From the NCBI GenBank assembly GCA_965198005.1, contig CBDAOI010000004.1:1568001-1632000 (forward strand): a stretch of DNA of 64,000 nucleotides, written 5' to 3'. The translations under genes were made by a program, and so were the position numbers. Origin of the DNA: Spirochaetia bacterium (GTDB taxonomy: Bacteria > Spirochaetota > Spirochaetia > SZUA-6 > Bin103). The notes under the pieces were generated by a model. That model was not told where the DNA came from and did no database searches. It saw only the letters and a program-made list of their open reading frames with translations. How positions within the stretch are numbered: the first letter of the stretch is position 1; each line of letters begins with the position of its first letter. Positions 21,656-41,970 of the stretch are shown here, piece by piece.

Positions 21656-21679
21656 CGTTTCTTCCTTCAAAGTTATCTT

Positions 21680-22260: not shown

Positions 22261-22745
22261 ATCCTGGCGCGTCATCGTGACGCTTCATGACCATCCGTCG
22301 AACCCCAAGTGAGGCACGCTAGCATAGGCGCGGCGCGCCGTCAACGACTCGTGGGGGTCACCGGGGTGAGCGAAGGTCACCGCCAACCCGTCACTGGACG
22401 TCGTCATGGCGCTTCATCACCGTTCCGTCGAACCCCAAGCGAGGCAAGCTAGCATAGGCGCGGCGCGCCGTCAACGACTCGTGGGGGTCACCGTGAGCAG
22501 GTCACCGCCACCCGTCACCGCGCTGACTGTCGTCATGGCGCTTCATCACCGATCCGTCGAACCCCACGCGATGCAAGCTTGCTATGGACGCGGCCAGCCT
22601 GTCAACGACTCGGAGGTCACCGAGGTCACCGACCGTGACCGCCAACTGGCCACTGCGCTGGCGGTCGTCGTGGCGCTTCATCCTCATCGACTCTAACCCC
22701 TAACGGTGCAGTCTCTCGCGAGCGCGGCGACCCTGTCAACAGCGC
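22261..22745 (-). promoter_or_regulatory. Four tandem ~130-bp promoter-bearing repeats
   Basis: Minus-strand TTGACG-17-TAGCGT (22344), TTGACG-17-TAGCTT (22474), TTGACA-18-CAAGCT (22605), TTGACA with weak -10 (22739). Confidence 0.7.
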
Positions 22746-23038
22746 CGACCCGTGGGGTGCGCGCGAACGAAATTTGCGTTGCCGACCGGCAACGCGCGGT
22801 GTCACGCCGGACGAGCGGTGACCTTCACACGTGGCTCCATCCGTAGCGCCACGGGTGGCATGCAGCTCCCGGCCCGCGACAGGACGTCGTGGGCTGGGAG
22901 CCCGTTAGCTGTTCCGGAGGCGCGCCCGGAACGCACCCGACCAGGTCGACGAGCGCCGGGCTGGGTATGGGCGTGACCTGGCCGGTCAGCTCGAAGCGGC
23001 GCCTGGGCACCGCAGACCCAGTCGGCGAAGTGTACCGA
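22743..23038 (+). repeat. Boundary repeat R2, upstream of operon 2
   Basis: Matches the other R2 copies. Confidence 0.9.
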
Positions 23039-23121
23039 GAAGGACGCCACGGTACTCGCCCGGGCGACCGACGACCGCACCGAAATCCGCGAGGGCCGCC
23101 TCTCAGCTAGTTGCTTCGAAA

Positions 23122-23239
23122 TCAGGTACGACGCTGCCAGCGACGCGGATCTCGCCTGGCGTGCATGCATGCGACGACGACAATAGTGTCGCCATAGATG
23201 CGGTAGAAGAGCCCGTAAGGAAACCGCTGTGGGATTAGA
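23122..23239 (-). pseudogene. 3' fragment of RelE/ParE toxin, near-identical to 31494-31611, cut by IS1634
   Basis: LIPQRFPYGLFYRIYGDTIVVVACMHARRDPRRWQRRT*. Confidence 0.9.
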
Positions 23240-25216
23240 CCGAAGTTCCAGAGGATGATTGTTAGGTAAGTTGCGTGATAACATATAGTTACGTGCAATT
23301 TCTCAGGTGCCGTGCGTGGCTACATCCGAGGCGTGAATCCCCAGTAGTTCGAAGCAGCGCTGCTGCACGGGCGTCGGCTGCGTCAGTAACTGGAAGGCGC
23401 CGCCACCCTCTGCAACCTGCATTGTGTTCGCTGTCAGCGTGCCTAACACGCTGATCAGCCCACGAAAACTGTGCACCGGCAGATCATCTGCGGTGCGCTT
23501 GCTGGACGCTTTCGCCTGTGCCGCCGGCGACCGCACCGCCGGGCGCACCACCGACGACCGTTGCCGTTCCCCCGCCTCCGGATCGTGGTCATCGAACAGC
23601 ACCGGCGCCAAGGTGCCGCGCATGTGCCACTCCACGTAGTAGGCCAGCATACACAACAGCACGTGCGCCCGTACCCGCTCAGCCCGCCGATGGTAGATCG
23701 GACGCACCTTCAGATCCACCGTCTTCATACTCCGGAACGCGCGCTCCACCTTGGACAGGTCCTTGTACGCCCGCACCGTCTGATCGGCGTCGAACAGCTC
23801 GGGCTCGACGTTGGAGCGCACGATGTACCGCCCATCGAGTTCTTCTTCGGCCGCGATCTTCTCCTGGTCACGCACAAACGTGAATGAGGTCTCGGTGATC
23901 TCGGTGATGAAATGCTTGGCCACCTTGTGCTGGTTGATCACCTTGCCCACCCGGATGCCGATCTCACCGGCGCCGCGCAGCGGATCGTTGGCGCGCTGCG
24001 TGGCAGTCACGATGGAGGCCAGTTTCTCTTCGGTGGCGGCCAACAACTCCAGCCGCTTGCGCCGCCGTTGCTCGGCCAACACCGGGTTGCGGCACACGAC
24101 CAGCCGTTCGCCGGGAAAGTCGGGACTGCTGATCTCCGCCAAGTCACGTTCGTCGAACAACGTCGGCGTCACGCTCCCGGCCGCGATCAGCTTGCGGATG
24201 GTGGGCGCGCGCAAGGTCGTGATCCAGCGCAGCCCGTCGATTCCCTGCAGATCCTCCCGGATGCGCGCGCCAGTGAGCATGCCGCGGTCGCCCACCAGCA
24301 CCACCCGCTGCAACCCGAAGCGCCTGCGAATCTTGTCCACCTGCGCGGCGACCGTCTTCGGGTCGCTGGTCGAGCCCTCGAATACCTCGACCGCCACCGG
24401 ACAGCCGGCTGCCGTGCACAGCAGCCCGAACACGATCTGCAAGGTGCCGCGCTTGCCGTCGCGGCTGTGACCGCGCTGCGCCAACGGACAGGTGTGTCCC
24501 TCGAAATAGCTGGAGGCAAGGTCATACAACATCAGCGTGTTGTCACTCAGGTGGCGCTGTGCCAAGCGGTTCTCGATCCCCTGCTGGCGCCGTACCAGCC
24601 AGTCCATCGCTTGGTACAACTCATTCTCATCGACCGCGCCTAACCCCAGCAGTTGGCCCAGGGTGGACACTGCGGTCTCGGCGGACAGCGCGCTGGCGGT
24701 GGCCAGTTTGGAGCGGGCGTCGATCACGCGGGCGACGATCATGGCGATCACCAGACCGCGCATGCGGCTGGCAGGACGGGCGATGAGGGTGTGCAGACCG
24801 AGCTGCTTGAGGGTGCCGAGGACGGCGGCCACGTGACCATGGGCGTAGCTGCGCACGCAGGTGAAGGCGGCATCGGGATTGACGAGGGGTTCGCCTTTGA
24901 GAGCTCTGCGGATGAGATCGATGACGCGGCTGGGGAGGTGGGAGATGTTACCGAGGGTTTCGTGCTTGACCTTGCCGTCCTGGCGGAAGGTTCTGCGCAG
25001 CAAATGGGTGTGGTAGGTCTTGTTGTTGTGGCGGCGGGTGGTGGTGGCTACATGGACTGCACCGTTTCTGGTTGGCATCGTTGATAGAGTACACACAACA
25101 GCGAAATAAGTCAATGCCATTGGGGGTAAACTCGTGGCTACACATTGCACGGTCACAAAGCCACTAATTACTTGTATGTAAAGTAATTAACCCAGATTTT
25201 CCGTCTGGAACTTCGG
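23240..25216 (-). mobile_element. IS1634-family insertion sequence
   Basis: 13-bp IRs CCGAAGTTCCAGA / TCTGGAACTTCGG; ATTAGA direct repeat at 23234-23239 and 25217-25222. Confidence 0.9.
23303..25078 (-). CDS. IS1634-family DDE transposase
   Basis: YDLASSYFEG, GHSRDGK, VGDRGM, YKDLSKVERAFRSMK, RPIYHR. Confidence 0.95.
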   Translation of the reverse strand: MPTRNGAVHVATTTRRHNNKTYHTHLLRRTFRQDGKVKHETLGNISHLPSRVIDLIRRALKGEPLVNPDAAFTCVRSYAHGHVAAVLGTLKQLGLHTLIARPASRMRGLVIAMIVARVIDARSKLATASALSAETAVSTLGQLLGLGAVDENELYQAMDWLVRRQQGIENRLAQRHLSDNTLMLYDLASSYFEGHTCPLAQRGHSRDGKRGTLQIVFGLLCTAAGCPVAVEVFEGSTSDPKTVAAQVDKIRRRFGLQRVVLVGDRGMLTGARIREDLQGIDGLRWITTLRAPTIRKLIAAGSVTPTLFDERDLAEISSPDFPGERLVVCRNPVLAEQRRRKRLELLAATEEKLASIVTATQRANDPLRGAGEIGIRVGKVINQHKVAKHFITEITETSFTFVRDQEKIAAEEELDGRYIVRSNVEPELFDADQTVRAYKDLSKVERAFRSMKTVDLKVRPIYHRRAERVRAHVLLCMLAYYVEWHMRGTLAPVLFDDHDPEAGERQRSSVVRPAVRSPAAQAKASSKRTADDLPVHSFRGLISVLGTLTANTMQVAEGGGAFQLLTQPTPVQQRCFELLGIHASDVATHGT

Positions 25217-25238
25217 ATTAGACTTAAATGATCAATCA

Positions 25239-25547
25239 TTGATTGCGAACTACTCCACTCTTCATGGTATCCGGGATCTTCGGAACTTGCTGGCTCACGA
25301 AGTATCAGAGACAACCACGTGGCACAGCTTCAACACCGATCTTGGCGTCGTCGAAAATGAACTCCAGCATCTCGGCTTCGTCGGGGATCGTCCAGAATAT
25401 AAATACTTCGGTGAACGCTCTGCGATACGCGGGAGCGATGAGCCCGGCATCGCATTTGTGCAGGATTTTCGATTTGGAATCAAATGCAATGATCGCGTGA
25501 CCATGGAAATCTCGTTCACACGAAAGACACACAATGCTGGAGATTAG
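25239..25547 (+). CDS. Hypothetical protein or fragment in low-GC DNA
   Basis: 102-aa ORF with a HEPN-like RNLLAH motif; probably 5'-truncated by the IS. Confidence 0.4.
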   Translation: MIANYSTLHGIRDLRNLLAHEVSETTTWHSFNTDLGVVENELQHLGFVGDRPEYKYFGERSAIRGSDEPGIAFVQDFRFGIKCNDRVTMEISFTRKTHNAGD

Positions 25548-25808
25548 GTGGGCGTTTATCATTATGCCTTCTATGCGTTCACGAGCCGATAATTTCGCGA
25601 TAATTGACGCGTTTTCGTAATGATCGCTCCAGGATGATACATTGGCAGAGATTTCACAACCTCCGTTATCTTGTGTCGCCGAGAACATCATCAAACGGAG
25701 TCCCGCACTTCCTCTGAGGGGCCAATCGATATAGGTTATTCCTGGAACTGCCTGCCATGTATCTGCCTTCTCGGGATTTTGGGGATCATGTCGGGAATTA
25801 AGAAGATT

Positions 25809-26729
25809 TTACGCTCTTTCCTGCATACGCTCGACGCCACCTCTCAGCCTCGGGTCAAGCAGGTCCCTCACGGCATCGCCGAACATGTTTAGACTCCAAA
25901 CGGTAATCGTCAGGGCAAGACCCGGCCAGAGAGCCAGGTGTGGCGCTATATCCATGAACCTACGTCCTTCCTGGCTGAGCAGACCACCCCAATCAGGAAT
26001 CTCGGGAGGCAGACCGAATCCGAGGAAGCCCAGAGAAGCCAAAGTCAGGATTACGTCTCCTATACGCATGCTGAATGAAATGATTATGATAGGCATCACA
26101 TTGGGTATGACATGTCGCAGAAATGGTCTAAATCTTGAGCTGCCAATCGCCTCCGCCGCCTCAAAATACACATTCTCCTTAATGCCAATGACGGCGCTTC
26201 GGATTACTCTACTGCCGCCGATGCCTCCTGATATGGCCAGAACCAGTATTATCTGTGGCAAACCCCTTCCCACTATGGACATTACGGTTAACAACAGGAG
26301 CAGTCCCGGGAAACTAATCCAGGTATCAACAAATCTCTGCACACCCAGGTCCAGTTTACCACCAAAGAATCCTGAGATGCCGCCTATCAGGGTACTGAGC
26401 ACAACATTAAGTGTGGTCACTGTCAGACCGATAAGTACGGAAATACGAGCCCCATAGATAATGCGGCTCAAGAAGTCTCGCCCCAGCTGGTCAGTACCCA
26501 GGAGATACTTGGCTGATGAACCCTGAAGCCTGTCTACCAGGTGTAATTCATCATACGGATAAGGGGTCAAAACACCGCCAAAGATAGCCACAAAAATCAA
26601 TATCAATAAGATAATCCCGCAGGCAGTACCCAGTGGCTTCTTCTTCCATAGCCTGATAAAGAAATCAGCCAGCCTTTTACGTATCTTTGGTTCGCTTACT
26701 GCTGATGGTGTCCCTGTGCCGTCACTCAT
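25809..26729 (-). CDS. dppC: DppC-type ABC permease, operon 3
   Basis: LLGTDQLGRD, RHVIPN, DLLDPR. Confidence 0.95.
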   Translation of the reverse strand: MSDGTGTPSAVSEPKIRKRLADFFIRLWKKKPLGTACGIILLILIFVAIFGGVLTPYPYDELHLVDRLQGSSAKYLLGTDQLGRDFLSRIIYGARISVLIGLTVTTLNVVLSTLIGGISGFFGGKLDLGVQRFVDTWISFPGLLLLLTVMSIVGRGLPQIILVLAISGGIGGSRVIRSAVIGIKENVYFEAAEAIGSSRFRPFLRHVIPNVMPIIIISFSMRIGDVILTLASLGFLGFGLPPEIPDWGGLLSQEGRRFMDIAPHLALWPGLALTITVWSLNMFGDAVRDLLDPRLRGGVERMQERA

Positions 26730-26747
26730 ATTCCCGATATTCCTCCC

Positions 26748-27776
26748 TTATCTATAACGGACCCTGGGGTCTAAATAGGGATAAATCATGTCGGTAAGTA
26801 GAATGGCCAACATAGTTATGCCGCCGAAAAACAGGTTTACTCCGGAAATCACCGGGTAGTCTCTAAGACTGAGTGCCTCCAGAAAGAAACGACCTAACCC
26901 CGGCAGGTTGAATATGCTCTCTATGATAACTGAGCCACCTACCAGCAGGGGCAAAGACCCACCTACCAGGGTAACTACCGGGATGATTGCATTCTTCATG
27001 GCGTGTCTGATAATGACTACCCTCTCCTTGAGACCCTTGGACCAGGCCGTCCTGATATAGTCCTGCCTGAGCACCTCCAGCATCATGGTGCGCGTCAACC
27101 GCATTGTGCCGGCAGCCATGCCCGTCCCCAGAATCAGGCTGGGAATGATGAACACCCCGAGATTCCCCAGCGGGTCTTCCACGAAAGGAACCCACGTCAT
27201 CGGTGGCGACCATTTCCACCAGATTGCCGGGTATACCATGACCATAAGTGCCAGCCAGAAGTTGGGCGCTGCCATGCCGATGATAGCGACGGTGCGCCCC
27301 GTGTAGTCGGCGGCGGTATCCTGGCGAATCGCCGAGTAGATGCCGACTGGCAGGGCTATCACTAGCCCGATTACGATTGCCATGACGCCAAGCTCAATGG
27401 TTACCGGGAGTTTACGTAATATCCTCTCCTCTATCGAAAGAGATGAAGCCGGCGAGGTTGAGAAGTATTCGCCACGCTCAAACAGTGATTCGCCAAAGGT
27501 GCCCTGGAGGAGACCTTTGAAGTGGGACTCACCGGTAAACCAGTCAGGGGTCGGCAACACTCCTATCCAGCGTCCATACTGCACGTAGACAGGCACGTCT
27601 AATCCCAGCTGATGCTCAAGAGCTTCACGGTCAATATCGTATCCGAACTCCATCCGAGCCGCCATTGCGTCTATTACATCGCCCGGGATGAAGCGGACCG
27701 AGAGAAAGACTATGGTACTCAATATAAACAAGGAGGGGATTATCAGCAATAACCGCCTGATGAGATAGGCTCTCAT
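26748..27776 (-). CDS. dppB: DppB-type ABC permease, operon 3
   Basis: MRAYLIRRLL, QDYIRTAWSKGL, RDYP. Confidence 0.95.
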   Translation of the reverse strand: MRAYLIRRLLLIIPSLFILSTIVFLSVRFIPGDVIDAMAARMEFGYDIDREALEHQLGLDVPVYVQYGRWIGVLPTPDWFTGESHFKGLLQGTFGESLFERGEYFSTSPASSLSIEERILRKLPVTIELGVMAIVIGLVIALPVGIYSAIRQDTAADYTGRTVAIIGMAAPNFWLALMVMVYPAIWWKWSPPMTWVPFVEDPLGNLGVFIIPSLILGTGMAAGTMRLTRTMMLEVLRQDYIRTAWSKGLKERVVIIRHAMKNAIIPVVTLVGGSLPLLVGGSVIIESIFNLPGLGRFFLEALSLRDYPVISGVNLFFGGITMLAILLTDMIYPYLDPRVRYR

Positions 27777-27789
27777 GTCACACTACTCC

Positions 27790-27976
27790 TTGTCATTGCG
27801 AGCCCCCCCCCCCCGTCATTCCCGCGAAAGCGGGAATGCATAGTAATTTCAAATGGTTGCGTTTTCTGGATTCCGGGTCTTCGCCCGGAATGACAGTGAG
27901 AAAGCGCCCCTCTCATTATTTGAGGAGTATCGGGAGCTGGGAAGCGCGCCTGCAGGCGACAGCCTCCCAGCTCCCC
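27790..27976. repeat. REP-like palindromes and post-SBP hairpin
   Basis: gtcattcccgcgaaagcgggaat...ttccgggtcttcgcccggaatgac, a C-run, and gggagctggga...tcccagctccc. Confidence 0.7.
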
Positions 27977-27996
27977 TTTTCCCTGAGCTAAGCCAC

Positions 27997-29807
27997 CTAA
28001 TAACCCATGGCTTCCTTCATCTCGGAATCAATCCAGAGGCGGGCCCATAACTGACCATAACGCTGCCCCCAACCCAGCTGGAATTCACCGTTGTAGCCTA
28101 CGAGCCACGGCTGGTTCACGTTAAACATTGGGACTTTGAAGTACCATACGTAGTAATGGTTCTTAATCATGTACGCATCCGCCTCTTTCAGTCGCCTCTG
28201 CTGGTCCTCCAAGGTGGTAGCGGCTTCGGCGGCTTCAATCAAGCTATCAAGATGCTCGTCCTGTACTCCCGGTATGTTAACCGTTCCTTCCGAGTGACCA
28301 AAAGCGCGCATCATCCACATGGGGTCTCCATGATCGAACCCCAACATCGCCGATGTCATACCTTCGTAGCTATGGTCACGTGAAATAGCTTGCCAATGAC
28401 CAGAGGTGTCGACGGGTACATTTACCTCTACATCAACGCCAATCGCAGCCCAGTAGTCGGCAGCTATTTCTGAAAGGCTTGTGTCCCCTAACGCCACCCC
28501 AAACTGCGTCTGGGTGGTCTTGAATCTAATGCCATCCGCACCGCGCGGGTATCCAGCCTCATCAAGCAGCTTCTCGGCCCCTTCCGGGTCATACCTATAG
28601 CCTTTCTTGACCTCTTCGGGCCACTCATCAAATGGGACGAAATAATCCACAACACCGTCACCTATCACCCCCTGAGGTATCCACTTAGCCCGACCCTTGT
28701 AGTAGGCATTGTTGACTGTCTCGAGGTCCTGAGCCATCTGCATTGCCTTGCGCACCCGGATGTCGTCAAAGGGCGACTGACTTACGTTCATGGCAAAAGA
28801 TGTGTAGTCCGACCGAAATTGGTACGGGAGAAACTTGAGTTCGGGGTTGGTCTTCTGGAGGCCATCTACTTGGTCGAGTCTTGTTTCACTGCCGCCACTG
28901 AAACCCATGTAATCAATCTTACCCGTGCGCATTGCCGAAATACGCGTTGCCTCATCTTCCATCATCAGGAGCCTTATCTCGTCAAAATAAGGCAAGCGGT
29001 TCTCCGGGAACTTCTCGTCATAGCCCCAGTAGTCAGGATTCTTGGTCCAGGTGGCAGAGGTCGCCTCGACAACATCAGTCAGCATAAAGGGACCGGTGCC
29101 GACCAGGTTCCTCCAATCGTTAGCGTCCCCGTGTTCCTCGATTACCTCGGGGGGATATATATAAGGATCATAGTTGTTGAAGATAACCGACAGCACCCCG
29201 AGGTATGGCTTCGTCAGCTTAAAAACAACCGTCCAATCGTCGGTAGCCGTTACCGATTCAATTGGCAGGCTCTCATATTTTTGGACAGGTCCAAATTCAC
29301 TCCACTTGCCCAGACCAAAATAGCGGTGCCAGTTGTATTCCACATCCTTGGCAGTTAGCTCCCGACCGTTCATCGGCTCCTTATCGTGCCAGTGAACGCC
29401 CTTGCGGATGTAGAAGACTATCGTTGTGTCGTCGGGCGTTTCCCAGCTTTCCGCCAGCTGCCCTATCATGACCCAGAGAGGTACAGCCGACTAATGTGGT
29501 CATGTACGTCCCTATCTATTCCCCAGTCCGCGATGGATAGCCTCTCGACGACGCCACCCGCCGCAGCTAGGCCGCCGGTGGGTGTGGGATAACTGTCAGT
29601 GTTTTGACCTGTTTGGTATCGGCTGACCCAGGTGAATGTCCCGCCATACTCTGGCGCGGGCACCTCCTTGCCGGTGGTGGGGTCGGTCACGTACTTCTTG
29701 TCGGCGGCCGCTGCCGGCTCCTCTTCTGAGCCAGCGGCCCACAGGCCGGTTGCGCTCAGAATCAGGACCAACGTAATCGCGAAGGTCCTTGCAAAAAATA
29801 TCTTCAT
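27997..29807 (-). pseudogene. Family-5 SBP of operon 3, split by a frameshift near 29470
   Basis: N-terminal ORF (signal peptide, APEYGG) stops at 29466; the rest (GQLAESWE onward) is in another frame. Confidence 0.85.
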
Positions 29808-29831
29808 CGTTTCTTCCTTGAATGTTATTTC

Positions 29832-30390
29832 GAGAGTATTGCGGAGCGACTTGCGCTCCCTGGCTACTCTCATGCCCGCAACAGCGGGCGCGCCCGCCAA
29901 TGCAGACGGCCAGTTTGAGTCAAATGGCTGAAGCGCGCGGCGTGTGACTCACCGGGTTCGCCCGGGCTCACGCCGCGCGCGCGTGCGGTTCTTTCAGTAT
30001 CATCTTCACCTCCTTCTTGGGGCACAGGGTGCCCTGCCAGATGGCTGACGTAAGATGGGATCCGCGTGCGCGCCCCATCATGCAAACGCCCACCGCTCGG
30101 CGGACGTCGGGACCTGCGTCACAACGCCACGCGGGGCGGTGGTCGGCCGAGCAACGAATGTGTTTGGCCGGCGACGTGGGCGGTCGGTTCTGTGACGGTG
30201 AGTTGGGGGGCGGGGATCCAGGACCGTTGCGGTCGTAGCCGGCCGCTACCCCGGTGCTGAAGGCGACGGCGTGCGCGGGGGCACGTAGGGGGCGATCAGC
30301 CGGAGCGGTTAGTTGATTCTCGGTTTGAAAAAGTGGGGGGGGGGTATGATGCACCGGTCGCGTCACAGCGAACCGGTCACTGCGCTTACG
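29832..30390 (-). repeat. Type-A leader of operon 3, including G10 tract at 30335-30344
   Basis: Near-identical to the leaders at 21.7 and 40.8 kb. Confidence 0.95.
29968..30003 (-). CDS. Leader uORF MILKEPHARAA
   Basis: AAGGAGGTG Shine-Dalgarno; conserved. Confidence 0.6.
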   Translation of the reverse strand: MILKEPHARAA

Positions 30391-30772
30391 CCATCCTGGC
30401 GCGTCATCGTGACGCTTCATGACCATCCGTCGAACCCCAGGCGAGGCACGCTAGCATAGGCGCGGCGCGCCGTCAACGACTCGTGGGGGTCACCGAAGGT
30501 CACCGCCAACCCGTCACCGCGCTGTCGCCATCCTGGCGCCTCATGCCATCCTGGCACGTCATCATGGCAGTTCATCACCGATCCGTCGAACCCCACGCGA
30601 CGCAAGCTTGCTATGGACGCGGCCAGCCTGTCAACGACTCGGAGGTCACCGAGGTCACCGACCGTGACCGCCAACTGGCCACTGCGCTGGCGGTCGTCGT
30701 GGCGCTTCATCCTCATCGACTCTAACCCGGAACGGTGCACTCTCTCGCGAGCGCGGCCACCCTGTCAACAGC
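30391..30772 (-). promoter_or_regulatory. Three tandem promoter-bearing repeats
   Basis: Minus-strand TTGAC(G/A) starting at 30476, 30634 and 30768. Confidence 0.7.
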
Positions 30773-31265
30773 GCCGACCCGTGGGTGCGGGCGAACGAAG
30801 TTCGCGCCGCCGACAGGGAACTCCCGCGGTATCACGCCGGATGAGCGGTGTGACCTCCACCCGTGGCTCCATCCCTGGCGCCACGGGTGGCATGCAGCCT
30901 CCAGACCGCGACAGGACGTCGGGGGCTGGGAGCGGTTGTTGCTCTTTTCCGGAGGCGCGCCCGGAACGTGCCCGACCAGGTCAACGAGCGCCGGGCTGGG
31001 CATGGGCGTGAGCTGGCCGGTCAGCTCGAAGCGGCGCCTCGCATCGTAGTGTCTGCGCATCATAGGGCACCGCAGACCCAGTCGGCGAAGTGCACAGGTA
31101 ACTCATCACACGACTGACGCGTCGTCCGTTCGTGGGCCCCGTCCATGGGGCCCAGCACAGGCGTTCCCGCGCCATGGAGGGCGCGGGCGATTGCGCGCGT
31201 CCGGAGTCACCACCCATCACGCTCACCAGCGACGGGTCATGGAACCCGCTGACCGAGCCGGTCAG
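30772..31265 (+). repeat. Boundary repeat R2 with extension, upstream of operon 3
   Basis: Matches the other R2 copies; inverted match to 16150-16625. Confidence 0.9.
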
Positions 31266-32008: not shown

Positions 32009-32194
32009 GCCGGCAGTATAACCTACGCCCGTCCTCGGGGACGAAGTTCCGGCGGCTACCCCAGCCGGACAGTCCCTGCGCCCCGCTGCTCGGTTGCAGA
32101 CCGTCGGCGAAGCGGCGCGACCAGGGAACTTTGACCCCCGGACCCGGCTTAGCTATCTTCTTGACAGACATATCGGCGGCACAGATGCTTGGCC

Positions 32195-32483: not shown

Positions 32484-32497
32484 CGAGGTGTCGCGCC

Positions 32498-32821: not shown

Positions 32822-32877
32822 GCCGCCGCAACACCAAGGAGCAAGCCAACGCGTTTCGAAGATTGGCTAACCTACCT

Positions 32878-33096
32878 CCACACGCGCAAGGGGCCTTCGG
32901 ACACGTTCTGAATCGGCCAATGGGCCCTTTTGCCGGATCACGGATGTCGCCATTGTGCTGATGTAGCGGGCGCACCGCTAGTGACGGTTGGCCGGTGGTG
33001 CCGGCGTGGATCGTGGCGGCGTGAGAGGTAGCGCTGCCACGTCATGCCGCCGCTTCATCGGCCGCGGCAGAGTTCGTAATCGGTGACCTCCACCCG
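32878..33096 (+). repeat. Dispersed repeat R3 running into the left arm of an R2 hairpin
   Basis: Near-identical to ~42305-42517. Confidence 0.9.
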
Positions 33097-33554
33097 TAAT
33101 GGTGAGTACCGTGTTATGTGGAGCTGCGGTTGTAAGTTCATGTATGGTGGTGGTTTGCGGTTGACGCACTCACCATAAGCATGCCCCACCCCCTGGTGAC
33201 AACAGTCTCCCTATGCGCGCATCACCATGCAGATGAAGCGCAAGGACGCGGCTCTCGCGCCAAACACTGACAGCTGCGGCTAGCGGCTGCCTGTCTGGCA
33301 TGAAGACGAGGCCCTGCTGGCCTATCTGGAGAGCCTCGGTCGACCGCACGATCATGTGGCGAGCTCTCAGCAGGAAAATCATGTGACGAAAGGAGTTGCA
33401 GGCGCCAACTCGTAAACATTCGGTTCACTGGTATCCCCGAGGGTAGTGAGTAAGCGCGCTGGCGCGCTGAACGGTAACCACTGACACTCAAGTTTCGAAG
33501 TTTCGACTGGACACTCCCGAATTCGGGTGTTAGATTCTTGTAGGCGAGAGCTGG

Positions 33555-35207
33555 ATGAGGGGAACTGCTCGGCACACTGACGAGGAACGGCGCGGGGAGC
33601 GCTGCGCGGGGGGATGTGTCCACGTGGTAGCGAAACTGCGGCGGGAGAACCTGGAGCTCAAGCAGCAGGCGGGGTACTACCGGGCGCTGCACCGCAAAGC
33701 GGTGGCGCGCGAGCGGCGACTGAAAGAGCAGCTGAGCGGGGTGCGGACGAAGGCCCGGGAGTTGCGGCAGCAGCTGCGGGAACGGCGGGCGCGGCGCAAC
33801 AACAAGAGCGAGAAGCGCGCCAAGAGCGGCAGCGGCAGCAGCGGCAGCGAGGCGGCGGCAGCGCCGCGCCCGCGGGGCCAGCAACCCGGGTCGAGTGGGC
33901 ATGGCCGGCGCGACCACTCAGCGCTGCCGGCGCAGGAGGAACACCACAAGCTGGAGCCGAACGCGCGCTGCTGTCCCCAGTGTGGCGGGGAGTACGGCGC
34001 GGCCGGCAGCGAGGACTCCGAGGTGCTGGAGATTGAAGTGCGCGCCCACCGGCGGGTGATCAAGCGCCAGCGGTACCACTGCAGTTGCGAGTGCGCCGGG
34101 GTGCCGCGGGTGCTCACCGCGCCGGCGCCGCCACGGCTGATTCCGAAGGGGATTCTGGGGGTCTCGATCTGGGTGCAGGTGCTGCTCGACAAGTACCGCT
34201 TTCACCGACCGACCTATCGGCTGCTGGAAGACCTGAGCACGCATGGCCTGGAGCTTGCGCAAGGCACCGTCACCGACGGCCTGAAACGGCTGGCGCCGCT
34301 GTTTGCGCCGCTGCTGGAGGCGCTGCGCGCGCGCAACCTCCAGGGTGACCACTGGCATGCCGACGAGACCGGCTGGTACGTGTTTGAAGCGACTGACGAG
34401 CAGGCTGGCCAGCGCTGGTGTCTGTGGGTGTTCTGGGGTCGTGAGGCGGTGGTGTTCACCCTTGATCGGACGCGCTCGGCGCGGGTGCCGAAGGAGCATT
34501 TTGCGGGGGTGGCGGGAGGCATCGTGAGTGTCGACCGGTATTCCTCCTACAAACGGTTGGCCAAGGACACCCCGCTGGAATTGCAGTACTGCTGGGCGCA
34601 TGTTCGACGCGATTTTATCCGCGTGGCCGAGAAATGGGACGAGCACCGGGAATGGGGCGAGCAGTGGCTGGAGCTGATCGGCGAGCTGTATCACTTGAAT
34701 GCTGTACGCCTGCCGGTGTGCAACGACCCCGTACAGTGGGCTGCGGCCGACGCGGCGCTGCGCGCGGCGGTAACAGCGATGGCGCAGCGGTTGGAGCGCG
34801 AACTGGCACAGCCGAAGCTGCCTCAGGCACGCAAGAAAGTGCTTACCAGTCTGCGCAACCACTGGTCAGGGCTGATCCGGTTCGTCGACCAGCCCGCTAT
34901 CCCGATGGACAACAATCAGGCCGAACGCGCGTTGCGCGGGCCGGTGGTGGGGCGCAAGAACTACTACGGCTCGGGGGCGACCTGGAGCGGTGAGTTGACC
35001 GCCACGCTGTTCAGCCTGTTCCACACGCTCGAGTTGTGGCAGATCAACCCGCGCATTTGGCTGACCGAGTACCTGAATGCATGCGCCGCCGCCGGCAGTC
35101 GGGTGCCGGAGGACTTTGAGCGCTTCCTGCCCTGGAACCGCCGCGACCGGCAAGCACCGCGCGCCTCGCCAGCCCCGCCAGGGGCTGCCCCGCAGCGCGC
35201 CGCCTGA
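33555..35207 (+). CDS. tnpC: IS66 transposase
   Basis: Coiled coil, CPQCG zinc finger, HADETG, CWAHVRR, DNNQAERALR. Confidence 0.95.
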   Translation: MRGTARHTDEERRGERCAGGCVHVVAKLRRENLELKQQAGYYRALHRKAVARERRLKEQLSGVRTKARELRQQLRERRARRNNKSEKRAKSGSGSSGSEAAAAPRPRGQQPGSSGHGRRDHSALPAQEEHHKLEPNARCCPQCGGEYGAAGSEDSEVLEIEVRAHRRVIKRQRYHCSCECAGVPRVLTAPAPPRLIPKGILGVSIWVQVLLDKYRFHRPTYRLLEDLSTHGLELAQGTVTDGLKRLAPLFAPLLEALRARNLQGDHWHADETGWYVFEATDEQAGQRWCLWVFWGREAVVFTLDRTRSARVPKEHFAGVAGGIVSVDRYSSYKRLAKDTPLELQYCWAHVRRDFIRVAEKWDEHREWGEQWLELIGELYHLNAVRLPVCNDPVQWAAADAALRAAVTAMAQRLERELAQPKLPQARKKVLTSLRNHWSGLIRFVDQPAIPMDNNQAERALRGPVVGRKNYYGSGATWSGELTATLFSLFHTLELWQINPRIWLTEYLNACAAAGSRVPEDFERFLPWNRRDRQAPRASPAPPGAAPQRAA

Positions 35208-35212
35208 CGCTG

Positions 35213-36094
35213 GTGCGCTACTGCGGGCGCACCTTCAGCGTGCAGGAGCTGGAGTTGATCCGCAGCCTCATGGCCGAGCATCCGGGCCACCATCGGCTGG
35301 CCCTGTCGCGGCTGGTCTGCGAACGGCTCGACTGGCGGCGCCCCAACGGGGGACTGAAGGATATGAGTTGTCGGGTCGCCCTGCTGCGCATGCACCGTGC
35401 CGGCCTGATCCAACTACCCCCACCACGGCAGGCCTGCTACAACGGCCGCCTGCGGCGTCGCCGCACGCCGCAGGCAGAGCCCCAATCACCGATCACCGGC
35501 AGCCTCCAGGGGCTGTCCGAACTGCACCTGCGCCCGCTCGCCACGGGCGCCGAAGCGGCGCTCTGGCGCGAGTACGTGGACCGCTACCATTACCTCGGCT
35601 ACACCCCGCTGGCGGGAGCACAACTGCGCTATCTGGTGCTCAGCGGGCCGCAGGTGCTCGCCGTGCTGGGGTTTGCCGCCTGCGCCTGGAAGGTGGCGCC
35701 GCGCGACCGGTTCATCGGCTGGAGTGCGGCCCAACGCGAGGCCCGCTTGCCGCTCGTGGTCAACAACGCCCGCTTCCTGATCCTGCCGTGGGTGCAGGTC
35801 AAGAACCTCGCCTCCTGGGTGCTCGCGCGCAGCTGCCGCCGGTTGCCGGAGGACTGGCACAGCCGCTACGGCTACCGCCCCCTGCTGCTGGAGACCTTCG
35901 TCCAGTCCGATCGGTTCGTCGGCACCAGCTACCGTGCCGCCAATTGGATCCACGTCGGGCAAACCCAAGGCCGCGGCAAACTCGATGTCCACAACCAACA
36001 CGCTCTGCCCAAGAAGGACATCTGGCTCTATCCGCTCCGCCGCGATTTCCGCCGCCGCCTCTGCGCCCCGCTCGATCCTCACCCCAACCAGTAG
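35213..36094 (+). CDS. DUF4338 (DruA-like domain) protein
   Basis: YHYLGY..LAGAQLRY, RDRFIGW, NNARFLILPWV, LLETFV, GTSYRAANW. Confidence 0.9.
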   Translation: MRYCGRTFSVQELELIRSLMAEHPGHHRLALSRLVCERLDWRRPNGGLKDMSCRVALLRMHRAGLIQLPPPRQACYNGRLRRRRTPQAEPQSPITGSLQGLSELHLRPLATGAEAALWREYVDRYHYLGYTPLAGAQLRYLVLSGPQVLAVLGFAACAWKVAPRDRFIGWSAAQREARLPLVVNNARFLILPWVQVKNLASWVLARSCRRLPEDWHSRYGYRPLLLETFVQSDRFVGTSYRAANWIHVGQTQGRGKLDVHNQHALPKKDIWLYPLRRDFRRRLCAPLDPHPNQ

Positions 36095-36139
36095 ACCGAA
36101 TATTTACGCCAACTCCACATAACACGGTACTCACCATTA

Positions 36140-36228
36140 CGGGTGGAGGTCACCGAGCATCCGGCGTGACACCGCCCCGGCTACCGGTCGGCCGCGCGAA
36201 GTTCGTTCGCGCGCACCCGTGGGTCGGC
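36140..36228 (-). repeat. Partial boundary repeat R2, downstream of operon 4
   Basis: Reverse complement matches ~30772-30863 up to cacccg. Confidence 0.85.
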
Positions 36229-36377
36229 GCGGCGATGGCGAAGCCGAAGGCTGCCCGCGCCGGGGTGATCGAGCGCGAAGACATCAGGGCCGACCAGTCG
36301 CATCTCGCCTTGCTGACTGGGCTGGACGGCGACCCGGCGCAGGCGCGTGGCGTCTATGCCGCCGCAGGCGGGCTCTC

Positions 36378-37301
36378 TTAAACCGACCCGGCGGCTCCGG
36401 CACCGAGACTACCACCGCCCCTCAGCCTCGGGTCGAGCAGATCCCTCATGGCGTCGCCGAACATGTTCAGACTGTAAATCACAATAGTCAGGCAAAAACC
36501 GGGCCAGAGAGCCAGCCGTGGCGCCGTCTCCATGAATTCGCGCCCTTCCCGGCTGAGCAGACCTCCCCACTCAGGAATCGTGAATGGCAGACCGTATCCG
36601 AGGAAGCTCAGAGAAGCAATACTCAGGATCGTGCCTCCTACGTTTATGCTGAATATGATGATTACGACAGGCGCAATATTGGGCAGGAGATGTCGGATAA
36701 GTGTTCTCCATCTTGAGGAGCCAATCGCTTCCGCCGTCTGAAAATACACATTCTCTTTAATGCCAATAACGGCGCCTCTAACTACTCTTGAGCCGCCGAT
36801 GCCTCCGGCGATCCCCAGGACCAGTATTATCTGTAACACACCCCGTCCCACTATGGACATTAACGTTAACAACAGGAGCAATCCCGGGAAACACATCCAG
36901 GCATCGACAAATCTCTGCACAACCAGGTCGAATTTACCACCAAGGAATCCTGAGGTGCCACCTATCAGGGTACTGACCACAACATTGAGAGCGGTCGTGG
37001 CCAGACCAACAAGTAACGAAATACGAGCCGCGAAGATAAGGCGGCTCAAGAAGTCTCGTCCCATGTGGTCTGTACCGAGGAGATACTGGGTTGATGGGAC
37101 CTTCATTATGTCATACAGGTGTACTTCATCATATGGATAAGGAGTCAGAACATCGGCAAAGATAGCTACAAAAATCAATAGCAATATGATAATCCCGCAG
37201 GCAGTACCCAACGGCTTCTCCTTGACCAGCCTGATGAAGAAATCAGCCAGACCGGCACGTCCATTTGGCTCACTTACAGCCGACGGTATCTCGTCACTCA
37301 T
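36378..37301 (-). CDS. dppC: DppC-type ABC permease, operon 4
   Basis: LLGTDHMGRD, RHLLPN, DLLDPR. Confidence 0.95.
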   Translation of the reverse strand: MSDEIPSAVSEPNGRAGLADFFIRLVKEKPLGTACGIIILLLIFVAIFADVLTPYPYDEVHLYDIMKVPSTQYLLGTDHMGRDFLSRLIFAARISLLVGLATTALNVVVSTLIGGTSGFLGGKFDLVVQRFVDAWMCFPGLLLLLTLMSIVGRGVLQIILVLGIAGGIGGSRVVRGAVIGIKENVYFQTAEAIGSSRWRTLIRHLLPNIAPVVIIIFSINVGGTILSIASLSFLGYGLPFTIPEWGGLLSREGREFMETAPRLALWPGFCLTIVIYSLNMFGDAMRDLLDPRLRGGGSLGAGAAGSV

Positions 37302-37319
37302 GTTCTTGATTATCCCCCT

Positions 37320-38327
37320 TTATCTATAACGGACCCTAGGGTCTAAAAAGGGATACATCAGGTCGATCACTAGATTGATCCCCATAACCGCGGTGGCGAA
37401 AAACAGGTTTATTCCGGAGACCGCCGGGTAGTCTCGGTCATTGAGGGCGTTCACCATGAGGCGACCTAGCCCCGGCAGGTTGAATATGTTTTCTATGATA
37501 ACGGAGCCGCCTACCAGGAGAGGCAACTGCATGCCAATGAGGGTAACTACCGGGATGAATGCATTCTTGAGGACGTGTCTCATAACAACCACCCTCTCCT
37601 TCAGACCCTTGGACCATGCCGTCCTGATATAGTCCTGCCTGAGCACCTCCAGCATTGCGGTACGCGTCAGCCGCATGGTGGCTGCAGAATAGGCCGTCCC
37701 CAGAATCAGGCTGGGAATGATGAACATCCCCAGATTCCCCAGCGGGTCTTCCGTGAAAGAAATCAGCTCCATCGGAGGCGACCAGCCCCACCAGATTGCC
37801 GGGAAGATAATGACCATCAGGGCCAGCCAGAAGTTAGGCGTTGCCAGGCCGATGACGGCGATGGTGCGTCCAGCATAGTCGGTGGCTGTATCCTCACGAA
37901 TCGCCGAGTAGATGCCGACTGGCAGGGCTATCACCAGCCCGATTACGATTGCCATGGCGCCAAGCTGAATGGTTACCGGCAATCTACCTATTATCTTCTC
38001 CTCTATCGAAAAACCGCCAAGAGTCCATGATTTGCCAAGGGTGCCCTGCAGGAGACCCTTGAAGTGGGACTCACCGGTACCCCAGTCAGGGGTTGGCAAT
38101 ACTCCTATCCAGCGTCCATACTGCACGTGAACATGCGCGTCTAATCCCAGATAACGCATAATAGCTTCACGGTCAATCTCGATCCCCGCACCCCAGGCCT
38201 GCATCCTATTCACCGTTGCGTCTATGACATCGCCCGGAAGGAGCCGGACCGCGAGAAAGACCAGGATGGTCAATATAAACAGGGTGGGGATTATCAGCAA
38301 TAACCGCCTGATGATATAGGCTCTCAC
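37320..38327 (-). CDS. dppB: DppB-type ABC permease, operon 4 (GTG start)
   Basis: VRAYIIRRLL after GAGG; QDYIRTAWSKGL. Confidence 0.95.
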   Translation of the reverse strand: MRAYIIRRLLLIIPTLFILTILVFLAVRLLPGDVIDATVNRMQAWGAGIEIDREAIMRYLGLDAHVHVQYGRWIGVLPTPDWGTGESHFKGLLQGTLGKSWTLGGFSIEEKIIGRLPVTIQLGAMAIVIGLVIALPVGIYSAIREDTATDYAGRTIAVIGLATPNFWLALMVIIFPAIWWGWSPPMELISFTEDPLGNLGMFIIPSLILGTAYSAATMRLTRTAMLEVLRQDYIRTAWSKGLKERVVVMRHVLKNAFIPVVTLIGMQLPLLVGGSVIIENIFNLPGLGRLMVNALNDRDYPAVSGINLFFATAVMGINLVIDLMYPFLDPRVRYR

Positions 38328-38954
38328 GTGACACACCTCATTACGATTGCCCCCGTCATTCCGGTGAAAACCGCAATCCACCTTCCACGTCTTTCCGGCC
38401 CCTTCCAGTGAAGGGCTTGTCCTGAACGAAGTTGAAGGGCGCGGCATTCTCTAAGGTGCGAATGACCCCTGCCAAGAAACTCGCCTCTCACCGTTTTGGG
38501 GAGTTCAGAGGGGTGAAACCCCTTTGAAACGGGGAATCAAGGGGGTTTCCCCCTTGATTCCCCCTGTCCAGGGTTCAAGGATCACTCGATAGAACATCTG
38601 TAGCCCATCGTTGGTGAAGGCCCCATCCCCCTGTATCCGGCCGGGTAGAATCGCGGCGCGCGCAAGCCTTAGGCAGAGATTCATAACCACCTCGCTCTTT
38701 CGATTGCGAGGCAGGGGGTCATATTTCGGGGCTGCAGACATTCCTTTATGTTCAGGCTCCTGTGCTCGCTCGACCCTCTGGATGCCCCCACCTTGCAGTC
38801 CTGTGCCTAACAAAGCGGCAGGGCCTTATACACCACGCAGCTATCGTGCGGTTACCCAACACGAACTGTGGCATCACTACGTACCCGAACCGGGTAATTG
38901 GTACGGCCGGTTCTTCCCCGGCTGGAATGCAGTCTTGTCGGCTGCTCAAAACCC

Positions 38955-40778
38955 CTAATAACCCATTGCTTCCTTCAGCTCCTGGTCGATCCAGAGGCGG
39001 GCGGCGATGACATACTCAAATTGGGTTTGTCCTATTTGCCATTCTCTGTTAAGACCTTTGACCCACGGCTGGGTCGCGCCTATCGATGGTAGTTCCTCAC
39101 CCCATACGGACCAGTACCTCTCTATTGCGTACATATTCAGCTCTCTCACCAACGGCAATTGCTCTTCTTCTGTGCTTACCAATCGGCCGGCTTCGTACAT
39201 GGCGTCATAAGCCGGATCGCTCACATTGGGGCGGTTAAAGGAAGAACCAGTCACGTAAGTACTCATCGTTCCGAAAGGCGCTTTCCTAGTGCCCAATACC
39301 GTAGCAATCATGTCATGATCTCTATTTGCAGCGCGAGGACCTAGCTCCGCACCTGTCACTGGCTCAATCTCTAGATCAACGCCAATGTCACGATAGTATG
39401 TAGCGGCTATTAATTCTGCATAGCTCACATCGGCGGCGTCATGCCAGGTCAATGTGGCCTTGAACCTGATGCCGTCGGCCCCGCGCGGATACCCCGCCTC
39501 ATCAAGGAGCTTCTCGGCCCCTGCCGGGTCATACATATAGCCTTTCTTGACCTCTTCGGGCCACTCTTCAAATGGGATGCCAGCCACTGGGACATCGTTG
39601 CCTACCGTTCCCTGAGGTATCCAGTTTCCCCACCCTTTGAAGTAGGTATCGTGAATTGTCTCAAAGTCCAGTGCCATGTTCATTGCCTTGCGCACCCGGA
39701 TGTCATCAAAGGGTGGCCTCTCCGTGTTCATGCTAAAACTATTAAGCGACCGTACCCAATGCTCGGTTATGACGATTTCGGGGTTGGTCCGCTGCAGGCT
39801 CTCCACTTTGTCGATACTGCCGAACATCCTATAGGCATGCAAGCCGGTGTAATCGATCTTACCCGTGCGCAGCGCCGCCAGCTGCGTTGCGTGTTCTGGT
39901 ATAATCAGGCCCCTTAACTCGTCAATATAGGGCAGTCGGTTCCCCGGGTATTTTTCGTCGTCGCTCCAGTAGTTACGATTCTTGGTATAGGTTACAGAGC
40001 TGCCGTCGACATACTCAGTCAGCATAAAGGGCCCAGTGCCGACCACGTTCCTCCAATCCTTCATGTCTCCGTATTCCTCGATTACCTCCCGTGGAACAAT
40101 GATGTGAACTACAGGGTCGATGATAGACCGCAGCGCACGGGGGTCTGGCTGCTTCAGCTTAAAAACAACCGTCCATTTGTCCGTTGCTGTTATCGATTCG
40201 ATCGGTATAGCATCCCACCCATCATACCCGAGGCCGGGGGTAGGTTCGGCTTCGGAGAATTCGCCCATAGCAAGATTGCGTTGAAAGGTATATTCTACAT
40301 CATAGGCAGTCATCTCCCGACCGTTCACCGGTGGCTTGTCATGCCAGTGAACGCCCTTGCGGATGTGGAAGGTATAGGTGAGGCCGTCCTCGGAAATATC
40401 CCAGCTTTCCGCCAGCGCACCTCTTAAGGTAGATAGAGGAGTGGAAAAACCTGAGAAGTCAAATATGTCCCTATCTATTCCCCAGTCGCCGATGCTTAGC
40501 TTCTCTAGAACACCTTGGCTCATTATGTAGAGGACACAGCCGTGGGAATAATACGGGTCAGCAGTCGGACAAAGCCCCTTTTCACTCCTGCCAATGGTTA
40601 ATGTCCCGCCATACTCCGGCGCGGTCACCATCTTGCCGGTGGTGGGGTCGAGCACCATTTCCTTCTCGGCAGCGGCTGCCGGCGCCTCTTCCTCTGCGCC
40701 GGCGGCCCAGAGGCCGGTTGCGGTCATTACGAGGACCAACGCAACCGCGAAGGTCATTCTAATTCTTACAATGTCCAT
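38955..40778 (-). CDS. Family-5 ABC substrate-binding protein, operon 4
   Basis: Signal peptide, APEYGGTLT, LAESWD, GTGPF, PPFDDIRVR. Confidence 0.95.
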   Translation of the reverse strand: MDIVRIRMTFAVALVLVMTATGLWAAGAEEEAPAAAAEKEMVLDPTTGKMVTAPEYGGTLTIGRSEKGLCPTADPYYSHGCVLYIMSQGVLEKLSIGDWGIDRDIFDFSGFSTPLSTLRGALAESWDISEDGLTYTFHIRKGVHWHDKPPVNGREMTAYDVEYTFQRNLAMGEFSEAEPTPGLGYDGWDAIPIESITATDKWTVVFKLKQPDPRALRSIIDPVVHIIVPREVIEEYGDMKDWRNVVGTGPFMLTEYVDGSSVTYTKNRNYWSDDEKYPGNRLPYIDELRGLIIPEHATQLAALRTGKIDYTGLHAYRMFGSIDKVESLQRTNPEIVITEHWVRSLNSFSMNTERPPFDDIRVRKAMNMALDFETIHDTYFKGWGNWIPQGTVGNDVPVAGIPFEEWPEEVKKGYMYDPAGAEKLLDEAGYPRGADGIRFKATLTWHDAADVSYAELIAATYYRDIGVDLEIEPVTGAELGPRAANRDHDMIATVLGTRKAPFGTMSTYVTGSSFNRPNVSDPAYDAMYEAGRLVSTEEEQLPLVRELNMYAIERYWSVWGEELPSIGATQPWVKGLNREWQIGQTQFEYVIAARLWIDQELKEAMGY

Positions 40779-40801
40779 AGTAGCTCCGTATGTAGATTTT
40801 T

Positions 40802-41360
40802 CGAGAGTATTGCGGAGCGACTTGCGCTCCCTGGCTACTCTCATGCCCGCAACAGCGGGCGCGCCCGCCAACGCGGACGGCCAGTTTGAGTCAAATGGCT
40901 GAAGCGCGCGGCGTGTGACTCACCGGGTTCACCCGGGCTCACGCCGCGCGCGCGTGCGGTTCTTTCAGTATCATCTTCACCTCCTTCTTGGGGCACAGGG
41001 TGCCCTGCGAGATGGCTGACGTAAGATGGGATCCGCGTGCGCGCCCCATCATGCAAACGCCCACCGCTCGGCGGACGTCGGGACCTGCGTCACAACGCCA
41101 CGCGGGGCGGTGGTCGGCCGAGCAACGAATGTGTTTGGCCGGCGACGTGGGCGGTCGGTTCTGTGACGGTGAGTTGGGGGGCGGGGATCCAGGACCGGTG
41201 CAGTCGTAGCCGGCCGCTACCCCGGTGCTGAAGGCGACGGCGTGCGCGGGGGCACGTAGGGGGCGATCAGCCGGAGCGGTTAGTTGTTTCTCGGTTTGAA
41301 AAAGTGGGGGGGGGGTATGATGCACCGGTCGCGTCACAGCGAACCGGTCACTGCGCTGCC
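40802..41360 (-). repeat. Type-A leader of operon 4, including G10 tract at 41306-41315
   Basis: Near-identical to the leaders at 21.7 and 29.8 kb. Confidence 0.95.
40939..40974 (-). CDS. Leader uORF MILKEPHARAA
   Basis: AAGGAGGTG Shine-Dalgarno; conserved. Confidence 0.6.
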   Translation of the reverse strand: MILKEPHARAA

Positions 41361-41970
41361 TGTCATCGTGACCCTTCATGACCATCCGTCGAACCCCAAG
41401 CGAGGCACGCTAGCATAGGCGCGGCGCGCCGTCAACGACTCGTGGGGGTCACCGAAGGTCACCGCCAACCCGTCACCGCGCTGTCGCCATCCTGGCGCCT
41501 CATGCCATCCTGGCACGTCATCATGGCAGTTCATCACCGATCCGTCGAACCCCAGACGAGGCAAGCTTGCTATGGACGCGACCACCCTGTCAACGACTCG
41601 CACGTCACCGAACATCACCGGCCACCGGTCACTGCGCTGACTGTCGTCATGGCGCGTCATCATCGATCCGTCGAACCCCACCCCAAGCGAGGCAAGCTTG
41701 CTATGGAGGCGACCACCCTGTCAACGACTCGCAGGTGACCGACCGTGACCGCCAGCCGGTTACTGCGCTGACTGTCATCATGGCAGTTCATCACCGTTCC
41801 GTCGAACCCCAGGCGAGGCCAGCTTGCTACGGACGCGGCCACCCTGTCAACGACTCGGACGTCACCGAACATCACCGGCCACCGCGCTGGCGGTCGTCGG
41901 GGCGCATCATCTGCATTCGCCGAACCCCTAACGGTGCACTCTCTTGCGAGCGCGGCCACCCTGTCAACAG
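41361..41970 (-). promoter_or_regulatory. Five tandem promoter-bearing repeats
   Basis: Minus-strand TTGAC(G/A) starting at 41435, 41593, 41724, 41850 and 41967. Confidence 0.7.

Follow-up and report, generated by a model that had tools for sequence, protein, structure and literature searches.

The sigma-70 promoters A1, A2 and A3 of phage T7 stand in series at 498, 626 and 750 of the annotation, about 125 bp apart, and serve one transcript. They are one fixed trio at a single locus and not an exchangeable family of many loci. Integron cassettes are moved by an integrase at attC sites. Related arrangements are described in the literature. In Mycobacterium tuberculosis, promoter tandem repeats of dop (57 bp), lpdA (58 bp) and cysG (54–56 bp) lie head-to-tail in variable number before the gene with a promoter in each copy, and an engineered second lpdA copy is reported to give a phenotype (PMC12817950). 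The PeSL cassettes of the T4-type phages RB49 and phi1 repeat a sigma-70-like promoter, a Shine-Dalgarno sequence and a start codon, and recombination between the copies reshuffles the intervening DNA (PMC2839356). Putative mobile promoters are near-identical promoter regions before far less similar genes (PMC3575422), and gene-less cassettes of Vibrio superintegrons are mobile promoter-only units that raise downstream expression (10.1101/2023.11.21.568050). This report concerns units of ~120–160 bp, each with a putative sigma-70 promoter followed by a conserved block, that are stacked upstream of transporter operons in a 64,000-nt stretch of the genome of a sponge-associated member of the Spirochaetia (GCA_965198005.1, contig CBDAOI010000004.1, positions 1,568,001–1,632,000, here called the window). 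Positions are counted from the first letter of the window unless stated otherwise.

Like the M. tuberculosis repeats, the units lie head-to-tail before a gene, in variable number and with a promoter in each. Those repeats are one-locus series of near-identical copies, whereas here about a dozen types are mixed and common to ~50 loci, the units are twice as long and each has a predicted translation start (PMC12817950). Near-identical neighbours are rare in the present arrays (2 of 91 adjacent pairs), and 117 of 125 units are closest to a unit at another locus. The combination of promoter, ribosome-binding site and start codon resembles the PeSL cassettes, as does the proposed recombination between copies. 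PeSLs, however, flank individual ORFs of a phage and include both an AT-rich upstream region and a terminator stem-loop (PMC2839356), whereas the modules described here stack directly on each other on a bacterial chromosome and stand at the head of a leader ORF; their consensus tail is G+C-rich, and no conserved stem-loop was found in them. The module system combines traits of promoter tandem repeats and of PeSL-type cassettes and lacks a defining feature of each. It is like the mobile promoters in that closely similar promoter regions precede far less similar genes; the promoters looked for in that survey formed pairs or small families before genes unrelated to each other (PMC3575422). The gene-less Vibrio cassettes are comparable as mobile promoter units (10.1101/2023.11.21.568050), but neither an attC-type hairpin in the heads nor an integron integrase (the array-adjacent recombinase being the one checked) was found here. 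No description of the element was found in the searchable full-text literature, which leaves subscription papers and supplements outside its coverage. With a probability of roughly 0.6, the stacked modules of promoter and leader start are exchanged between loci and set the transcription input of each operon.

Promoter architecture of the modules

A profile of the conserved block has 148 matches at 51 loci of the whole genome, with 1–7 matches per locus, and 0 matches in the reversed genome. Most arrays end 250–900 nt upstream of a gene for a solute-binding protein (SBP) on the same strand. The motif TTGAC is found upstream of 118 of the 131 blocks with an intact 5' end, compared with 5.2% of random positions, and its distance to the block is 38–47 nt in nearly all cases. 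The promoter search was anchored on the block and circularity is thereby avoided. A -10 element of the form NANNNT follows at a spacer of 17 or 18 in 57 of 62 distinct promoters, compared with 13.3% of all 7006 TTGAC motifs of the genome. The -10 boxes are diverse (GAGAGT, CAAGCT, TAGCGT, TATCAT, GAAGAT, GACGAT, TATACT, GACGGT, AAGGGT). Conservation is confined to the A at position 2 and the T at position 6, and the other four positions vary. Sigma-70 depends most on these A and T positions. About a dozen promoter types with differing spacers have the same block, here called the head, in common. The spacing between units is mostly 114–143 nt and similar to that of T7 A1–A3.

The sense strand upstream of the 146 SBP genes holds at least one such site in 110 regions, at least two in 52 and eight in one, whereas the antisense strand of the same regions holds at least one site in 31 and at least two in 1. 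The promoter of the rRNA operon has the same layout (TTGACC-17-TATATT). RpoD is encoded with a score over the cut-off, and its regions 2.4 and 4.2 presumably resemble those of E. coli. The original prediction held that each unit is a promoter. The TTGAC and -10 counts and the excess over the antisense strand support this well, and RNA contigs (see below) lend it weak support.

The SBP gene is intact at 46 of the 51 loci with at least two sites and at 69 of the 95 with none or one (Fisher p 0.018; the 'broken' class may include assembly errors, and because units share descent all p-values in this report overstate). The commoner intact SBPs at multi-promoter loci are a possible hint of selection.

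A second, shorter tandem series with a diverged head (type H, 102–112 nt) has three copies in the relative L070 and two in this genome at contig positions of about 2001500–2001750. Its ATG lies ~9 nt behind the -10 box and the transcript is possibly leaderless.

The conserved block as a predicted translation start

The block has an open frame that begins ATG AAG CGC CAY GAY GAC and encodes MKRHDDSQRSDRLAVT; it is present in 142 of 148 blocks (at most 5 mismatches). ANGGA precedes the ATG by 8–9 nt in 71 of 84 distinct transcripts, compared with 3.6% of random ATGs. An extra in-frame start lies 3–9 nt upstream in 92 of 100 heads and an out-of-frame one in 5. Diverged homologues of the head behind other promoter types keep the frame, for example MRDDTSQRSHRLAVTQPV and MAENTTQRCHRLGATQPA. 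In 81 dereplicated heads pN/pS is 0.77 in the head frame versus 0.98–1.05 in the other five frames, and stops occur in 7 of them in the head frame versus 76 and 74 in the other frames of the sense strand.

The frame remains open from one head to the next in 83 of 111 distinct intervals, versus 19 and 19 for the other frames. The open intervals comprise 37 that fuse in frame with the next head and 46 that stop at it, 42 of these as ATGA/TGATG overlaps; the ATGA overlap is an automatic consequence of the sequence ATG-A. Behind the array, the innermost head is in frame with a mini-ORF (MILKEPHARAA) across a poly-C tract in 25 of 46 scorable loci and fully open in 17, with 69 of 115 arrays unscored (67 without a match to the mini-ORF and 2 too distant). 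In the window, the leader is read through at operons 3 and 4 and stops early at operon 2, with its 28 C, and at operon 5.

The '+1 block' reads best as a ribosome-binding site and leader ORF start that doubles as a crossover zone. The recurrent block of the original prediction is real, although the sequence quoted there is one variant and not invariant. Some heads carry an extra 18 nt, either inserted or duplicated, that include a small GGA hairpin and keep the frame (41486–41521, 30527–30562 and other arrays). The core of this insert has 37 genomic copies, 22 of them inside arrays.

Mosaic composition of the arrays

For the 125 units in multi-unit arrays, the closest match lies at another locus in 117 cases and in the same array in 5, with 3 ties (median 0.96 versus 0.80). 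Since other loci supply more candidates, pairs of the same type were also compared. Similarity within and between arrays is 0.864 versus 0.851 for type B (p 0.08) and 0.853 versus 0.861 for type C. Adjacent units have a median similarity of 79%, with 95% or more in only 2 of the 91 pairs, and 28 of 91 consecutive unit pairs recur at another locus. No two units of one array are identical over 100 nt, whereas 26 units have such a twin at another locus. The few near-identical neighbours, the lack of a significant same-array excess and the recurring pairs indicate that unit number and type change mainly through exchange between loci. In-place duplication was rejected as the main source on the same adjacent-pair and closest-match counts. 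The arrays had been predicted to expand and contract; number and type do change, but mainly by exchange between loci and not in place.

The boundaries of the exchanged module were located by linkage in 101 distinct internal units from this genome and the fetched relatives. The tail of a unit has an excess mutual information of 1.02 with the next promoter versus 0.34 with its own, so that the true module consists of tail, promoter, 5' untranslated region (5' UTR) and start. For the 5' UTR the relation is reversed (1.05 with its own promoter versus 0.22 with the next). The linkage flips between about +16 and +31 of the head, which indicates that modules are joined inside the conserved block. Low variation in the block depresses mutual information and the crossover zone is accordingly approximate. 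For operons 2–4 of the window, the leaders are 95–98% identical and the SBPs 45–53%.

Arrays in related species

Sixty regions of sister species were fetched because they bear the block. Ten sister-species SBPs have a best match of at least 92% in this genome, and nine were inspected (92–96% protein identity). All 9 of these counterpart pairs have differing promoter sets, and 7 also differ in the number of blocks; the counterparts are one-way best hits from regions selected for the block. Examples are 7 blocks versus 3, 0 versus 2 and 3, and the three promoters of operon 3 versus two blocks in two species. The DNA was matched in 7 of 40 relatives, namely 6 of 10 of the genus and one marginal match in the family, and the exact pattern had no match in JGI metagenomes (strict pattern) or viral contigs. 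As judged from these matches, the module family is lineage-restricted. Homologues are named as Spirochaetaceae and the records with the same DNA motif as Spirochaetia metagenome-assembled genomes.

At the level of sequence comparison, a promoter architecture under selection, a coding head, mosaic stacks, a crossover in the head and differing stacks on counterpart genes are established.

RNA contigs over the operon 4 array

RNA runs labelled as sponge metagenome contain this DNA. Four of the 24 runs listed were compared, and cover was taken from contigs summed over paralogues that give no strand or start positions. In two RNA runs from two studies the depth over the operon 4 array is 132–621 and 473–2118. 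It drops to 11 and 27 in the bin of the outermost promoter and to 0–2 and 0–45 beyond it. The fall of RNA cover at the outer edge of the array is a weak hint, a pointer to transcription at the level of the family. Contigs identical to the operon 4 locus span the inner -35 and -10 boxes, and RNA across these boxes needs an upstream start; an origin from a paralogue or from DNA is possible for these contigs. Contig joints that skip units are indistinguishable from paralogous loci and were not used for copy-number variation.

Proposed mechanism and alternative explanations

Each unit of ~120–160 bp would form the 5' end of a transcription unit, with a sigma-70 promoter, a short untranslated stretch and a G-rich ribosome-binding site. 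A start codon, or two of them in frame, would then open a leader of the type given above, whose first ~16 codons would lie within the unit. Modules may be added, removed and swapped when the heads of about 50 loci undergo homologous recombination or gene conversion with one another, whether they pair in register or not. All promoters of a stack would feed one downstream leader. Ribosomes from an upstream unit would fuse into the next head or hand over to it, and the RNA would thereby be shielded from Rho, which is encoded in the genome. The innermost head would run into the poly-C tract, which would fix the frame of the long leader ORF. Module number and type would set the transcription input of ~140 binding-protein operons with additive output. 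We infer that copy number sets expression, as had been proposed. A promoter construction kit, in which stacked standard parts are reshuffled via a coding linker and translation is relayed, would add a graded heritable setting on top of a poly-C on/off switch. This extended picture is tentative and somewhat more doubtful than probable.

Several observations weigh against the proposed mechanism. No such site is present within 1.7 kb of 36 of the 146 SBP 5' ends. In the operon 2 and operon 4 arrays (the two scanned), 0 sites were returned by a stock promoter scanner that demands 4 of 6 -10 matches, so that weak promoters are conceivable in types A and B. Poor -10 matches are seen both in CAAGCT with spacer 18, the most frequent inner type, and in GAGAGT, the outer type, and to judge by their boxes the units of the window are not strong-consensus promoters. 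Selection at the peptide level is weak (the pN/pS of 0.77 compares with about 1.0 in the other five frames), as expected if translation counts more than its product. Furthermore, the ribosome-binding energy is no better than that of shuffles of the same G-rich letters (-6.1 versus -6.0), 28 of 111 unit ORFs stop early, and the avoidance of an in-frame -35 TGA (10 of 109) falls short of significance once each distinct length is counted singly (6 of 28, p 0.13). The RNA evidence consists of paralogue-summed contigs, and two of the four runs, for which the kind of library is unrecorded, stay at a depth of 366–1341 over the region where the others fall. The selection of the sister-species regions, the shared descent of the units and the share of arrays unscored for the mini-ORF count on the same side.

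A neutral by-product is the explanation that would follow if only the innermost promoter mattered. The outer modules would then be debris, left behind by recombination among ~140 look-alike leaders and by mobile elements directed at cassette edges; how many there are would make little difference. The weak -10 boxes of types A and B agree with this, as do the insertions that often cut arrays, a multicopy element that in 10 of its 62 copies ends directly against the outermost module, and the many SBPs with one or no such site. Yet type B, which is mostly not innermost, keeps its -35 box, its spacing and the A and T of its -10 box across many variants. The open head frame through the next promoter, the commoner intact SBPs at multi-promoter loci and the RNA contigs over the inner boxes (with the reservation on their origin given above) likewise argue for functional outer modules, and we consider the neutral explanation unlikely. 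A classical promoter tandem repeat, in which slippage or unequal exchange between sisters lengthens and shortens the array on the spot, with phase variation like that of lpdA, dop and cysG in M. tuberculosis, is improbable. The head-to-tail order of units with a promoter in each, in 1–7 blocks, the two adjacent pairs at least 95% alike and the differing counts between species are as such a repeat would have them. The similarity of adjacent pairs in general, the same-type similarity, which is not significantly higher within than between arrays, and the 26 units with identical twins that all lie at other loci are not.

The block had also been proposed to be an operator or a small RNA. As an operator, it could be bound by a protein such as EbfC/YbaB at GTnAC sites between the start of a unit and the next -35 box, and more units would bind more protein. 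Of the gapped words in internal units, GTnAC shows the highest enrichment (2.0 per unit, 6x the genome rate), and YbaB/EbfC is encoded (PF02575 over the cut-off). EbfC of Borrelia has a preference for GTnAC and occupies two sites immediately 5' of the erp promoters, and it is termed not gene-specific (PMC2665219). One of the GTnAC sites varies chiefly at its middle letter, which in the leader ORF is also a third codon position. About half of the units have lost another of the sites, and diverged heads are without the motif. Moreover, any repeat has some most-enriched word. The enrichment leaves the operator a minor possibility that is confounded with the leader reading frame, and we rate it as improbable as in-place repeat growth or slightly more so. 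Gene-less promoter cassettes moved by a site-specific recombinase, with the block as recombination site as in integrons, are very unlikely. The linkage flip is indeed confined to a small part of the block, the operon 4 array has a tyrosine recombinase gene ~1.5 kb upstream, and the Vibrio superintegrons provide a precedent (10.1101/2023.11.21.568050). A conserved hairpin was, however, not found in the head, and the nearby tyrosine recombinase scored 52 bits against an integron-integrase cut-off of 265 (the rest of the genome was not searched). Additionally, no stretch is more conserved than the flip zone, and homologous exchange would be expected there. Hardly any weight is given to a regulatory RNA from each unit, such as a sponge of the CsrB kind in which GGA motifs recur. 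Each unit has one ANGGA, some carry the GGA hairpin insert, and a match to CsrB is sub-threshold (12.6 bits versus a gathering score of 71). This ANGGA stands at a fixed ribosome-binding distance. None of the 5 genomes examined from the genus (90–98% complete) contained CsrA, and a CsrA target or sponge was rejected. The consensus fold of 74 diverged heads is empty (RNA parameters only), the folding z-score has a median of -0.03 with 2 of 40 below -2 (40 of 88 distinct internal units), and no terminator-like site was found inside the operon 2 and operon 4 arrays, the two scanned. No Rfam family reached its gathering score in the window, where three chance-level matches lie at 40800–42400. A structured small RNA is not supported for the '+1 block', and an operator is at most a candidate.

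The five operons of the window

The window contains five operons, each with a family-5 SBP and two permeases in the order SBP-oppB-oppC, and they are surrounded by transposases and decayed copies. No ATPase was found among the 51 window ORFs scanned. The whole genome has 146 SBP 5' ends and 170 oppC 3' ends versus 8 OppD/F-type domains, and the ~140 binding-protein operons would share about four ATPase pairs. No description of this very large transporter expansion was found in the searchable full-text literature (subscription papers lie outside its coverage). The predicted promoter-like sites were all recovered, 16 in total, with 3, 4, 3, 5 and 1 for operons 1–5. The measured unit size of 117–158 nt in the window arrays is in agreement with the predicted ~120–160 bp.

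Operon 1 (9313–13427, + strand; SBP_bac_5, oppB-type, oppC-type) is preceded by three stacked promoters at 8603–8900 (+). The promoters are TTGACA-17-CATGGT (8603–8631), TTGACT-17-GACGAT (8674–8702) and TTGACA-18-TACAGT (8805–8834). The conserved block had been placed between all three. It is full after the middle promoter only; the first head is cut off and the third, of type H, is diverged.

The array of operon 2 (22216–22739, - strand) has four promoter and head modules of types A-B-C-C with -35 starts at 22739, 22605, 22474 and 22344. Their promoters are TTGACA-18-GAGACT (22739–22710), TTGACA-18-CAAGCT (22605–22576), TTGACG-17-TAGCTT (22474–22446) and TTGACG-17-TAGCGT (22344–22316), all on the - strand. 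A poly-C tract with 28 C on the sense strand (22185–22212, -) lies directly behind the innermost module. The leader ORF from the innermost head (22157–22294, -, counted from the translation) is out of frame past the C tract and ends after 45 codons. Operon 2 itself (16797–21670, -) comprises the SBP_bac_5 gene (19841–21670), an oppB-type gene (17727–18683) and an oppC-type gene (16797–17717). A leucine-rich-repeat (LRR) protein with a 66-nt repeat (18729–19721, -) is placed between the SBP and oppB genes.

Operon 3 (25809–29900, -; SBP_bac_5, oppB-type, oppC-type) has three modules A-B-C at 30350–30768 (-), with sites at 30768–30739, 30634–30605 and 30476–30448; the 3' limit of this array is approximate. 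Its leader ORF of 152 aa (29968–30426, -) runs from the innermost head through a 10-C tract to an in-frame end on the mini-ORF MILKEPHARAA. The SBP gene is split by a frameshift near 29470 (-), either genuine or an assembly error. Operon 4 (36378–40871, -; SBP_bac_5, oppB-type, oppC-type) has five modules A-B-B-B-C at 41320–41967 (-), with sites at 41967–41938, 41850–41821, 41724–41695, 41593–41564 and 41435–41407. The leader ORF of 148 aa (40939–41385, -) likewise passes a 10-C tract and ends in frame on the mini-ORF. Operon 5 (57704–61571, +; SBP_bac_5, oppB-type, oppC-type) has a single module at 56877–57010 (+), in which TTGACG-17-TATACT (56877–56905) is followed by the head and a 12-C tract.

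The end of a multicopy element (41976–42290, -) abuts the outermost type-A promoter of operon 4 and is almost without RNA contig cover. This end of ~300 nt has further window copies at 30813–31137, 22785–23006, 13602–13830 and 16279–16598 and 62 merged matches in the genome; 10 of the 62 have their 3' end directly against an array, and 22 have it at most 260 nt from an oppC 3' end in opposite orientation. This placement indicates that the element favors cassette edges. Behind it lies an ORF (42704–43360, -) without an NCBIfam match, whose frame we take to resemble a DprA/SLOG-type protein; a tyrosine recombinase and a Mu-type transposase/ATPase pair adjoin it.

Two overlapping promoter-like sites at 32131–32189 (+), TTGACC-17-TATCTT and TTGACA-17-GATGCT, are unrelated to the arrays. 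An ORF at 50232–51347 (-), inside a decayed cassette, joins an oppC fragment to a HigB-like toxin domain. No tRNA or tmRNA was found in the window, and no family was matched by the short ORFs near the arrays, one leader ORF included.

Biological implications

Copy-number tuning at single loci with identical repeats is already known, as are recombining promoter cassettes in phages. If the stacked modules act as proposed, this genome would hold a chromosomal library of different promoters, combined in mixed stacks before the members of a very large family of paralogues. The symbiont could then allot expression among ~140 binding-protein operons with few ATPases, possibly without dedicated regulators. 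Each transporter operon would gain a heritable, graded transcription setting besides the poly-C on/off switch.

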